From IMG/VR virus record IMGVR_UViG_2534682139_000013: 26,266 bases of DNA; one strand, 5' to 3'. Shown piece by piece: positions 12,001-18,000 of the stretch. Made by a program: the position numbers. Numbering within the stretch: the first letter of the stretch is position 1; each line of letters opens with the position of its first letter. The DNA is from a virus. Lineage: Duplodnaviria > Heunggongvirae > Uroviricota > Caudoviricetes.

Positions 12001-15000
12001 CCAACTGAAGTTTTCGCTAATGCGGCGAGTCGCTTCCATTCCTCACTAGAAGCCTCTTTTCGCCAGCGTAGTAGTTCATTACTCATTAGTGCCTCCGTTT
12101 ATCACACAGAACAAATTTACCATTTTGATAAATCATCCGCAATGTAAATTTATCATATTGCGTATTTATCCATTTGCTAAATAGAGGGAAAATTGTGAGA
12201 TGGAAAACAAAGATATTCGCAAATCGAATCTGGCGTTTTTGCTAGATGAGCATAAAAAAATCGCGGGTAACACTAATGCAAGCTTTGCCGATAAGCTTGG
12301 GGTTAGCCCTTCTCAACTCACGCAAGTCTCCGGTGAAAAAAGCACTCGAAACATAGGGGATAAACTAGCAAGAAAATTTGAAGCCGCGCTTGGGTTACCT
12401 AATGGGTGGCTTGATTTGGTACATGATGTAACACCAATTGCATCATGCTCAGATTCTTTAACTTTTGTCGGTCAGGTAAGAAAAGGGTTAGTGCGCGTGG
12501 TTGGTGAGGCAATTCTTGGTGTTGATGGTGCCATCGAGATGACCGAAGAGCGCGATGGGTGGCTCAAAATTTATAGCGATGATCCAGATGCCTTTGGTCT
12601 TCGTGTGAAAGGAGACAGCATGTGGCCCAGAATAAAATCAGGAGAATATGTACTCATTGAGCCTAACACCAAAGTATTCCCGGGTGATGAGGTGTTTGTC
12701 AGAACCGTTGAAGGACACAACATGATTAAGGTTCTTGGCTATGACAGAGATGGAGAATACCAATTTACAAGCATTAACCAGGATCACAGGCCTATAACGT
12801 TGCCTTATCATCAAGTAGCAAAGGTGGAGTATGTAGCTGGTATTCTGAAGCAATCTCGCCATCTGGATGACATCGAGGCAAGGGAGTGGCTGAAAAGTTC
12901 GTGACTTCATCGTCACATAGCTGGTAACCAGTGGCCTGAAGAGACGTTTGGGTAAGGAGGATAGATGGCGTTCAATGACCTTGAATATCAAGCAGTAAAA
13001 AAAGAAGTTCACCAATTCATTGAAAGCATAAGGCCGCCTGAACATATCCGCAATGAACTGGATATTGTTTATAGCATCAATGACCAAACGATAGATATCG
13101 GCGAACAGCGCCCCGTGTGGCAGGGCAATCCAGGTGAAACAAACATCCTGCCATCAGCAAGAATCAAGTACATACGTTCTCTGGATAGATGGAAAATCTA
13201 TTGGATGCGGAAGGATATGAAATGGCATCAGTACAGTACTGAACTTTCGCTGACTGATGCGCTTGAGCTTGTGCGTGCTAACCCGGATTGCTGCTTCTTC
13301 GGATGAGTGAAGAGACGTTTGGATGATGGATGGTCGCAGAGATGCGGCCTGATTCTAAAATAGGATATAAAAAATGAGAATACTAGGTGTTAGAGCGGCG
13401 CCCAAAGTTACATCTTTTGTTGTATATTGCACTAATGAGTCTGCACTCAAATGTGTTGATGTTATTAAAATACCTTCGACCTTAGACACACCAGAAAAAT
13501 TAAAGTATGTGAGAAATAACATCCTCGACATTCTTAATTTATATAATGTTGAATTAGCTGCCATACGCGTTACTGAATCAAACTCTGATAATCTTAGCAT
13601 TGACCGCCTTTATATAGAAGCTGTTATTCAAGAAGCATTTTCAAGCAGTGATGTAAGAAAATATTACACTATTAGAAAATCTGGCATGAAATCATCATTG
13701 AACCTAACAGAGATCGAGTATAAAGAAATATTGAAGTCACACCGCAATATAAATGGAATCGATAATTCTGGTTTTACAACTGAAACAAATGAAGCTGTTT
13801 TGGCTGCACTATCTGCGGAGGTAAGGGGATGCTAACTCCATACAAAAGAGCTGATGTAGAATTCGAATGGATTAGTGATCTAGAAGAACAGGGTTGTTTT
13901 TCAAAAGTATATCTGGCTCATGACAGACACCTAGCTCATGACTTGGTGATTAAAGAAATAGAAAAAAAAGAAAACACTAACCACGACGACTACTTTAATG
14001 AAGCAAGGCTTCTCTATAAACATGCACATCCAAATATTGTGCAAGTTCAGTATGCTGCTCAATGTGAGAGCAATATCTATATAGCCATGCCATTTTATCA
14101 TAATGGTTCGCTAAACCAATTAATGAAAAAAAATAATCTTACAAGCAGGGAGATAATACGGTATTCCATTCAATTTTTAAGTGGACTTTATCATATACAC
14201 TCAAAAGGTCTTATGCATTTTGATATAAAACCTAATAACATTATGATATCAAACAGAAATGAGGCCATGCTATCTGACTTTGGATTATCTCAGTTAGTCA
14301 ATGAGGAATCGAGAGCTGCGCCTGAGTTTGGATATCATTTTCATGTGCCACCGGAATATTTTTCTTTATCAACAAATGATTATAATTTCACATATGACAT
14401 ATATCAGGCAGGATTAACCATATATAGAATGTGTGTTGGACATGATAATTTTGAAAGAGAAAGATCTGCATTTAGCACGATTGAACAACTCAGAGAGTCG
14501 ATAATTAATGGCTGCTATCCATTAAAAGAGTATCCTCCCCATATACATAAAAAATTAATAACAATAGTGAACAAATGCATTCATGTAGATCCAAATGAAA
14601 GATATCAATCCGTACTAGATGTACTAAACGATCTCTCAGCTATAAGTGATGGCGTTCTTGACTGGCGTCTACAGATGACGAAACCAACTAACGGCACATG
14701 CGAATGGCAAAAAAAGTCTGGGGACGCTATACTGTCTATAGTTTTTGACGCAGAAAATTCGTCTACTACTGGTTTTCGTTTATACGATGATGGGCGGAAA
14801 AGGCGTGCTACGAACTTAACAATATCCTCAGGATGTACCCCTACAAAACTGTATAGGTTATTAAAGGATAACTGATCATGAAAAAGCGCGAGGAAGTAAG
14901 CAAGCTGCCTCGCAGACGTGATGCAGCATTAGCGGTTCCCTACAAAAAAGATGAGTTCATAAGCCCTTCTGATGACAAAAAATTTTCAAAGGCGAAAAGT

Positions 15001-18000
15001 TTTACATCTACATCTCTAAAAGATAAATACTTTAAAATCTAGCCCGGCCTCAGCGCCGGGTTTTCTTTGCCTCACGATCCCCACACCTAAAAACACATAA
15101 CCAATTGTATTTGTTGAAAAATAAATAGATACAACTTGCTAAACAACGCAATCCAGATCTCCCTCAAATCTCTTTATTTATCCTGTCGAATTCCTACAAC
15201 AAAATAAAACACCATAAGAATCAATACGATATTTGAAAACCAAGAGAATTTATCATTTTGCTATTGCCATTAATTTATCATTCCGATAAAGTTCACCCAT
15301 CAGCAGGACGCACTACTCACCAGGGCGGTGAATATACAACGATTCGAATATGAATCTACGGCGCTGACAAAGCGCAATAACCAAAGTGAACTTTGGGGTG
15401 TGGTGAAGGGTTCATGGACGGGAATATGTCGCACGTAAAGCGGCGAGGCCTGCGGGACTATTGCCGAATTGAAGTAGGCCGAAACAGGTCGAAATGGGTC
15501 TCCCACCTACCACACCACCAAAGTTCATCAGGAGGTCTATATGACACGCAGAACTCAGTTCAAAGGCAATTCACGTTCTCGTCGTCGTGAGCGTTTAAAG
15601 GCAAAGGCATTAGCTAACGGCGTGCTGGCCCGCGAAGAAGCAATAAGTTCAGAAGTATTACACCGCCCTACTCTAAGCAGAGCGCAGATTCAGGCTAAAG
15701 GTACTCACGAAACGCCTGAGCGCATAGAAGACGCTAAGCCAATTAAGTTCATGGCACAGGACGTGATCTGGCAACAGAAAGAATACAGACGCAATCTGGA
15801 GCGAGCGGCCATTGTGTACGCGAATGAGTTTGGACATAAGCAACCAGAAACTGGTGTATGTCTTCCAAACGTAGCTCTTTACGCGGCAGGCTACCGGAAA
15901 TCAAAACAACTGACGGCAAGATGACTTGTGTTGGTCGCCAGAAAATGAAATTAGGCAGCAAACCACTTATTTGAGAGGAATTAATATGTCATCAATCCGC
16001 TTAACTACGAGAATGAAAGAGGAAATCGCTCGTAACGCTTTAATTAAGTCCGGGGTGTTCACTGAACTTGAAGAAGTAACAAAGTTAAAGAACCAGCTTG
16101 CACTTGACGCCAGAGTTATTGCGTTTGGCGGTAAAAAGAAAACTGAGGAAGTGGATCGGTTATCATCCAAGTTGGTAGCTATAAGTGAAGAACTTGGAAA
16201 GATGGGATGTTCATTTTACTCATACGATGTTAGTTCTACTTCAATTTATCTGACTGTATCTGGCAGAAGGGTTGGATGGCATTCATATGGGAAAGACGGC
16301 AACGGCAAAGATATATTGCTCCCTACTCCGATCAAAGATAAATGCATGTTTGACGCAGAACACGAAATAACAAAAAGGTTTGATGAAATCTGCGCATTGC
16401 AACAAAAACTTGAAGCCAAGAAAAAGGATATCGAATCAAATGTATGGGCTGCTTTGAACTCAGTCACAACAGTTAAGCGACTTATTGAAGTTTGGCCTGA
16501 AAGCAAAGAATTGCTACCAAAAGAAGCAGATAAAGCAAGTACAGCACTTCCTGCTTTACGGGTAGAAGATTTGAATAAGATGATTGGACTTCCTTCCGAG
16601 GCCGCATAGTCGGCCTTTATTTTTGGCATAAACAACAGAATAAATACTGCACTGTGTATTCATTCCAACGAGTGAATACACGGAGCAATGTCGCTCGTAA
16701 CTAAACAGGAGCCGACTTGTTCTGATTATTGGAAATCTTCTTTGCCCTCCAGTGTGAGGGCGATTTTTTATCTATGAGGATATGAATAGATGTCAAACAT
16801 CAAAAAATACATCATTGATTACGACTGGAAAGCATCAATAGAAATTGAAATCGACCATGACGTAATGACAGAGGAAAAACTTCACCAGATTAATAATTTC
16901 TGGTCAGACTCTGAATACCGACTCAATAAACACGGCTCTGTATTAAATGCTGTATTAATCATGCTGGCGCAACATGCTCTGCTTATAGCAATTTCAAGCG
17001 ACTTAAATGCATATGGTGTTGTGTGTGAGTTCGACTGGAATGATGGAAATGGTCAGGAAGGATGGCCTCCAATGGATGGTAGCGAAGGAATAAGAATTAC
17101 CGATATCGATACATCAGGAATATTTGATTCAGATGATATGGCTATCAAGGCCGCCTGAGTGCGGCTTTACCGCATACCAATAACGCTTCACTCGAGGCGT
17201 TTTTCGTTATGTATAAATAAGGAGCACACCATGCAATATGCCATTGCAGGGTGGCCTGTTGCTGGCTGCCCTTCCGAATCTTTACTTGAGCGAATCACCC
17301 GTAAATTACGTGACGGATGGAAACGCCTTATCGACATACTTAATCAGCCAGGAGTTCCAAAAAATGGATAAAACACTTATGGCTATCCAGACTAAATTCA
17401 CTATCGCCACTTTTATTGGCGATGAAAAGATGTTTCGTGAGGCCGTCGACGCTTATAAAAAATGGATATTAATACAGAAACTGAGATCAAGCAAAAGCAT
17501 TCACTAACCCCCTTTCCTGTTTTCCTAATCAGCCTGGCATTTCGCGGGCGATATTTTCACAGCCATTTTCAGGAGTTCAGCCATGAACGCTTATTACATT
17601 CAGGATCGTCTTGAGGCTCAGAGCTGGGCACGTCACTACCAGCTGATCGCCCGTGAAGAGAAAGAGGCAGAACTGGCAGACGACATGGAAAAAGGTCTTC
17701 CACAACATCTGTTTGAATCACTCTGCATCGATCATTTGCAACGCTGCGGGGCCAGCAAAAAAGCCATTACCCGTGCGTTTGATGACGATGTTGAGTTTCA
17801 GGAGCGCATGGCAGAACACATCCGGTACATGGTTGAAACCATTGCTCACCACCAGGTTGATATTGATTCAGAGGTATAAAACGGATGAGTACAGCACTCG
17901 CAACGCTGGCAGGGAAGCTGGCTGAACGTGTCGGCATGGATTCTGTCGACCCACAGGAACTGATCACCACTCTTCGCCAGACGGCATTTAAAGGTGATGC

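Follow-up and report, generated by a model that had tools for sequence, protein, structure and literature searches.

Two 17-bp sequences lie in the 26,266-nucleotide stretch of tailed-phage DNA held in IMG/VR as IMGVR_UViG_2534682139_000013 (Caudoviricetes; the whole stretch is called the window below), TTTACCATTTTGATAAA at 12116–12132 and TTTATCATTCCGATAAA at 15274–15290. They raise the question of which repressor reads them and which immunity type the prophage has. The original prediction, made from the sequence, had placed them in the right and left operator regions (OR and OL) as binding sites of the CI repressor encoded in the window, and both positions were confirmed exactly. We conclude with high confidence that the window, from an E. 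coli prophage, carries the immunity region of Shiga-toxin phage H-19B, and that the two 17-mers are its CI operators OR1 and OL1. The reading is carried by identity to a characterised phage, by agreement with annotation, by the specificity of the motif, by purifying selection on the half-sites and by co-inheritance with the N-terminal domain of CI. OR1 and OL1 are previously described H-19B operators that are annotated in public records, and the finding is therefore correct but ordinary. The OR and OL operators of H-19B were reportedly described by Shi and Friedman in 2001 (Mol Microbiol 41:585).

Identity of the two 17-mers

Open reading frame (ORF) calls and domain searches over the window identified the genes near both sequences as the lambdoid early genes cro, cI and N, and from their order the window is a lambdoid early region lying in reverse of the usual lambda orientation. 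The gene context had been read correctly, with the site at 12116 between cro and cI and the site at 15274 standing 250 bp upstream of N. The CI protein is identical to that of H-19B (AAD04644) at 234 of 234 residues, while Cro differs from its H-19B counterpart by one residue and N by two. A LexA-like self-cleavage domain of the S24 type occupies residues 103–206 of CI (Pfam PF00717, E = 3.8e-16). The N-terminal DNA-binding domain (residues 1 to ~92) is of the H-19B type and the C-terminal S24 domain is common with phage 933W.

The cro–cI spacer is the same as in H-19B (GenBank AF034975) but for base 12115 (A here, C in H-19B), and no difference is seen in the 150 bases compared across OL. Operator annotation was taken from GenBank GQ499358 (ST2-8624, 'immunity region similar to bacteriophage H19-B'), in which seven repressor binding sites are marked, and was mapped by alignment. 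The OR of that record is the same as in the window except at spacer base 12115, its OL is the same, and all seven annotated 17-mers are found unchanged at the matching window positions; by this record H-19B has the same seven sites. The two sequences coincide to the base with annotated OR1 and OL1, which, with the identity of CI, argues that they are CI operators as predicted. In a second record, KU238070, oR1 to oR3 were annotated independently, 2–3 bp to the right of the GQ499358 positions. One sentence of a review gives four operator sites for the OR of H-19B (PMC8065619, citing Shi & Friedman 2001).

A DNA search of the phage collection with the segment from cro through OR to the CI N-terminal domain returned 35 phage records, all at an identity of at least 98%, and no more distant DNA-level relative in that collection. 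Phages that share this immunity type include BP-4795, ST2-8624, Stx2a_WGPS9, AU5Stx1, mEp506 and many Stx1a phages.

The form TTTAYCA-N3-YGATAAA, which the two sequences had been said to share, was searched as the pattern TTTAYCANNNYGATAAA on both strands of the window and matches just these two places, compared with none in 100 dinucleotide-preserving shuffles (2 real versus 0.00 expected). A chance resemblance in AT-rich intergenic DNA has nothing further in its favour than the AT-richness of both regions; given that none of the shuffles yields any match, and that the matrix ranking, conservation and co-inheritance described below also support the sites, we give it virtually no credence. The additional TTTATC half-sites noticed earlier are real as well, at 12098, 12127 (minus strand), 12149 and 12165 in OR and at 15177, 15249, 15274 and 15285 (minus strand) in OL. 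This amounts to four in 113 bp and four in 141 bp, respectively, versus 47 over the window on both strands, an enrichment of ~16–20 fold. The extra half-sites fall in OR0, OR3 and OL2, with the one at 12149 inside annotated OR2 in a different register; 12098, where the predicted feature began, is the first base of OR0. The half-site TTTATCC at 15177 was rejected as an operator, being unannotated and changed at three positions in two OL variants that have an exact OL1.

The proposed consensus stood as a form that is present but proved slightly too narrow, since TTTAGCA half-sites are also used, in OR3 and OL2. The operator form would be TTTA(T/C/G)CA-N3-TG(A/G/C)TAAA, 17 bp long and roughly twofold-symmetric, with OR1 and OL1 as the apparent best-matching members of each set, and TTTA(T/C/G)CA is also the half-site at the level of the family. 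A symmetrised position weight matrix was built from OR1 and OL1 alone and 26,250 window positions were ranked with it, the range of ranks being given for each site in Table 1. OR3 came third, OL2 fourth and OR0 eighth; thus two sites predict the rest of the annotated set except OR2 and the weak OL3. Over the window, motif clusters were found only in the cro–cI and OL intergenic regions.

Table 1. Operators, promoter elements and neighbouring genes of the immunity region, with ranks under the weight matrix built from OR1 and OL1
Feature	Position	Strand	Sequence or product	Matrix rank	Remarks
OR0	12098–12114		TTTATCACACAGAACAA	8 to 21	annotated OR0; fourth, weaker right operator, over the putative PR start
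OR1	12116–12132		TTTACCATTTTGATAAA	1 to 2	exact annotated OR1
OR2 as annotated	12141–12157		AATGTAAATTTATCATA	3671	GQ499358
OR2, motif-fitting register	12149–12165		TTTATCATATTGCGTAT	5 to 13	one base common with OR3
OR3	12165–12181		TTTATCCATTTGCTAAA	2 to 3	annotated OR3; adjoins cI; model not including OR3
OL3	15217–15233		AGAATCAATACGATATT	33 to 118	annotated OL3; weak site
OL2	15249–15265		TTTATCATTTTGCTATT	4	annotated OL2; OR1 + OL1 model
OL1	15274–15290		TTTATCATTCCGATAAA	1 to 3	exact annotated OL1
PL candidate	15264–15292	+	–35 TTGCCA (15264–15269), 17-bp spacer, –10 TAAAGT (15287–15292)		promoter scan, 9 of 12 matches
Putative PR –10	12114–12119	-	TAAATT (TAAAGT in H-19B)		outer 4 bases of OR1 and 2 more; read by eye
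Putative PR –35	12137–12142	-	TTGCGG		17-bp spacer to –10
Candidate PRM –10	12188–12193	+	GAAAAT		ends 6 nt before cI ATG; tentative
cro	11853–12086	-	77 amino acids; PHROG 35, transcriptional repressor		first gene of PR transcript
cI	12200–12904	+	repressor, 234 amino acids; Pfam Peptidase_S24		
Four-gene block downstream of cI			DUF3024, RuvC-like, Ser/Thr kinase (stk), 54-amino-acid ORF		
Terminator-like hairpin	15041–15062	+			ends cI-to-stk block, just upstream of OL
N antiterminator	15541–15924	+	Pfam N_peptide		first gene of PL transcript

Variation among same-immunity phages and diverged relatives

Natural variants were gathered from IMG/VR and GenBank loci in which the CI N-terminal domain is identical to that of the window or one residue off, giving 21 distinct OR and 18 distinct OL sequences. 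In OR1, OR3, OL1 and OL2 taken together, 2 of 56 half-site positions and 3 of the 12 positions in the central three bases are polymorphic, and the spacers between operators vary at 19 of 40 positions. The comparison of half-sites with spacers gives a Fisher p of 2.7e-7, which is only indicative because the variants are phylogenetically related. Conserved half-sites around a variable centre would be the pattern expected of dimer-binding sites with a non-contacted centre. In OR1 the central base alone varies, OR3 has one polymorphic position, in one variant, OL2 is invariant, and OL1 varies only at positions 8, 10 and 11. For OR0, variation is concentrated in the right half, with 3 of 7 positions polymorphic, and the left half hardly varies.

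Downstream of cI, OL1 (with at most one mismatch) and OL2 (with none) are present in all 48 IMG/VR loci that reach that far, and the cI-to-OL distance takes more than 20 different values between 1327 and 2551 bp. The operators are therefore inherited together with the DNA-binding domain, irrespective of the intervening genes. In the window the distance from the cI start to OL1 is 3074 bp, compared with 2422 bp in H-19B, because the genes between cI and OL are here a 933W-type block and not those of H-19B.

These data also bear on whether the shared form could be promoter context only, with PR and PL as paralogous early promoters that carry the same –10 (TAAAGT) and no repressor sites at all. 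The outer TAAA of both OR1 and OL1 does sit in the putative –10 hexamers, and both regions are AT-rich. However, the motif is a dyad, and its half away from the promoter (TTTAYCA) is invariant although it serves no promoter function; the motif also recurs three to four times in each region, including OR3, OL2 and OL3, which overlap no PR or PL –10. It accompanies the CI N-terminal domain in each of the 48 loci, is exchanged wholesale together with that domain in 933W, and the sites are annotated as repressor binding sites. Taken together, these observations make promoter context alone a most improbable explanation, and the assignment to CI operators is retained.

Some points weigh against that assignment. 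The experimental basis of CI binding is second-hand, consisting of the GenBank annotation and the one-sentence review statement, and under the matrix the 17-mer annotated as OR2 fails to fit the operator motif. Pfam detects no helix-turn-helix family in the N-terminal domain of CI, and the search for solved structures related to this domain gave no informative match (best E-value 0.016); a helix-turn-helix is assumed by analogy to be its DNA-reading element. Finally, the assignments of PR and PRM (the cI promoter), to which we return below, are weak matches to consensus.

Since the DNA search had given only matches of at least 98%, diverged loci were found by protein anchoring in genomes and IMG/VR. 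Ten of these carry the motif, namely three Pantoea prophages (L007–L009) and seven IMG/VR contigs (L060–L064, L066, L067), and in them a CI N-terminal domain 50–65% identical to that of the window is encoded beside a cro-type gene. Motif 17-mers stand at –84 (–83 in L060), –51 and –35 from the cI ATG in 10 of 10 loci, and these offsets correspond to window positions 12116, 12149 and 12165 relative to 12200. At the position of OR0 no match scoring 9 or more was found in these relatives. Most of them have two or three motif sites 0.9–3.3 kb downstream of cI at OL-like spacing. An OL1–OL2 pair 25 bp apart is present downstream of cI in 6 of the 7 contigs, followed in 4 of those 6 by a third strong site 33 bp further, and in L064 no OL cluster was detected. 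Of the seven relatives in which an OL was detected, five have, 33 bp upstream of OL2, a site with a score of at least 14. An eighth contig, L068 (37% identity), has AATAGCA-N3-TGCTATT sites instead, at other positions.

In the diverged prophages (L007–L009, L060–L067) the preferred half-site is TTTAGCA, not TTTATCA. Prophages outside E. coli therefore carry homologues of cro and cI in the same arrangement of operators, the named genomes being those of Pantoea.

Promoters and a proposed lambda-type switch

The PL candidate shares 2 bp with OL2 and 4 bp with OL1, and its –35 (as TTGCCA, TTGCTA or TTGACC) and the TAAAnT of its –10 are kept in diverged relatives. The putative PR has the same geometry as PL, with TAAAnT at the same place in those relatives. 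At the offset of its –35 they carry TTGCnn (TTGATT in L062 and L064), and the TTG is invariant among the same-immunity variants. The sole call of the promoter scan in OR, on the minus strand (TTAGCA-17-TATGAT, 12180–12152), was rejected as PR because 7 of the 21 variants have T to A at 12156, which alters the essential A2 of its –10, and because the relatives do not have it.

Base 12115 is the single base between OR0 and OR1 and the fifth base of the putative PR –10 (TAAAGT to TAAATT). The C of H-19B is found there in all 20 other OR variants, and the change to A is probably neutral.

For cI itself, A2 and T6 of the candidate –10 GAAAAT are invariant among the same-immunity variants. In the diverged contigs (L060–L067) TGnGAnnAT occurs at –15 to –7 of the cI ATG, and the window has the GAnnAT match without the TG; the cI of L060 has no Shine-Dalgarno sequence. 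This arrangement suggests a leaderless or near-leaderless cI mRNA, like that from PRM of lambda. The PRM –10 could instead be TGcTAAATA at 12175–12183.

By analogy with lambda, the regulation may be pictured as follows. A CI dimer would bind each of the 17-bp operators, four in OR (OR0–OR3) and three in OL (OL1–OL3). As the –10 hexamers proposed for PR and PL begin with the outer TAAA of OR1 and OL1, respectively, a bound dimer would occlude the –10 and exclude RNA polymerase, and repression of these two early lytic promoters would keep the prophage silent. OR0 would cover roughly –7 to +10 of PR, and OL2 would abut the –35 of PL with a two-base overlap. OR3, over the cI promoter region, might mediate negative autoregulation and OR2 positive autoregulation of cI. 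Upon SOS induction, RecA-stimulated self-cleavage of CI through its S24 domain would free the operators, and Cro presumably uses the same sites. Within this scheme we infer the promoter positions, the operators that activate or repress PRM, cooperativity and Cro binding.

Phage lambda has 17-bp, roughly twofold-symmetric operators at a regular spacing of 23–24 bp, three of them in OR, with O1 lying over the –10 of the lytic promoter and a repressor of the S24 type. The window is alike in that OR lies between divergently transcribed cI and cro, with another operator cluster upstream of N, and also in the 17-bp twofold operators and the self-cleavage repressor of the S24 type; O1 would likewise overlap the putative lytic –10. 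The OL1–OL2 spacing is near as well, 25 bp versus 24 in lambda. In contrast, the operator sequence is unrelated (TTTAYCA-N3-TGRTAAA here versus TATCACCGCCAGTGGTA). Rather than three evenly spaced operators in each region, OR has four annotated sites, and the centre-to-centre distances are uneven, being 18, 25 and 24 bp in OR as annotated and 25 and 32 bp in OL. With OR2 in its motif register, the OR distances would become 18, 33 and 16 bp, in place of the regular 23–24 bp of lambda.

The register of OR2 and the mosaic surroundings

OR2 is the one annotated site whose register is in question, and the disagreement between its annotation and the comparative evidence is the one point here for specialists. 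It may be functional where GenBank puts it, at 12141–12157, as a poor site bound through cooperative contacts with the dimer on OR1, the match at 12149–12165 then being no separate site. Since the registers of the other six GQ499358 sites agree exactly with the motif, that of OR2 was probably copied from a published figure and is not a guess. Its centre is 25 bp from that of OR1, a lambda-like distance also seen between OL1 and OL2, and 24 bp from that of OR3, and its end overlaps the putative PR –35 by 2 bp, as OL2 does the –35 of PL. On the other hand, the annotated 17-mer ranks 3671 of 26,250, whereas a rightward shift of 8 bp gives ranks of 5 to 13, and phages with the same repressor vary at 3 of the 7 positions in the left half of the annotated site. 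The TTTATCA at 12149–12155 is invariant, and the changes seen in the shifted site lie in its three central bases and its right half. Furthermore, the 10 diverged loci with the motif all have a site at –51, which is the shifted register, but at –59 nothing that resembles the motif, and KU238070 puts oR2 at yet another register, 12144–12160, 3 bp to the right of that in GQ499358. With this evidence on both sides, we hold the annotated position to be quite possible, although somewhat less than an even prospect.

The corresponding proposal is that OR2 of the H-19B family lies 8 bp nearer to cI, at 12149–12165, abutting OR3, in a non-lambda layout that is family-wide, extending from the Stx phages of E. 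coli to prophages of Pantoea. We make this broader claim tentatively and regard it as rather unlikely as it stands. If true, the layout would be O1-33-O2-16-O3 in OR and O1-25-O2-33-O3 in OL. The shifted OR2 would have no contact with the PR –35, and PR repression would be left to OR1 and the extra OR0. With GAAAAT taken as the PRM –10 of a leaderless cI, the shifted OR2 would be centred at about –43, a lambda-like activating position from which it could activate cI. Such a layout may already have been shown by Shi and Friedman in 2001.

The immunity region of the window is a mosaic. The parts of the H-19B/BP-4795 type are cro, OR and the cI N-terminal domain (11703–12476) and OL (15118–15299), while the cI C-terminal domain and the block of DUF3024, RuvC-like, stk and 54-amino-acid ORF genes (12477–15117) are 99.8% of the 933W type, with other genes in their place in H-19B and BP-4795. 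The top megablast matches are 933W-like, and a 933W immunity type was rejected because the match is limited to 12477–15117 and the part from 15300 on, and because the operators of 933W are unrelated. In the shared parts, from 12477 (cI codon 93) to 15117 and from 15300 on (15300–15559 compared), the DNA identity to 933W is 99.6–99.8%; these hold the CI C-terminal domain, the cI-to-OL block with stk and others, and the nutL–N region. The two phages are heteroimmune, being unrelated from cro through OR to the cI N-terminal domain and at 15118–15299, which hold OR0–OR3 and OL1–OL3. The OL1 of 933W is gtcgaactattggttc, its OR1–OR3 are annotated as 15-mers and its OL1–OL2 as 16-mers, and it has only two OL sites. 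Tyler et al. and Koudelka et al., both in 2004, are said to be the sources for OR and OL of 933W.

The mosaic composite was sought in complete E. coli genomes with the insertion sequence (IS) removed from the query, since IS copies confound a search with the whole block. It is 100% identical in E. coli O103:H2 FWSEC0007, in CEC12044 and in O121 and O103 isolates, these being O103:H2 strains and related STEC, and is present at a coverage of at least 80% in 29 of 5426 complete genomes.

The IS in question is an IS3-family element (IS629/IS1203-like) of 1309 bp at 10394–11702, with inverted repeat TGAACCGCCCCGGG and target duplication TGTT, situated between PR–cro and the O/P replication genes. 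It is inserted after codon 4 of cII, the remnants of which lie at 11703–11714 and 10105–10393 (minus strand). Since the insertion splits cII, the prophage is without CII and the rightward early transcript must cross the IS; in this the window differs from H-19B. The element occurs once more in the window, at 24213–25520, as a 96.6% identical copy with the same orientation.

For the window, the result names the immunity type of the prophage, and a reading of the sequence alone had found the true OR1 and OL1. These operators set the lysis–lysogeny switch of an immunity type that is widespread among Shiga-toxin phages (H-19B, BP-4795, many Stx1a and some Stx2a phages), and therefore bear on the ease with which toxin-converting prophages are induced.

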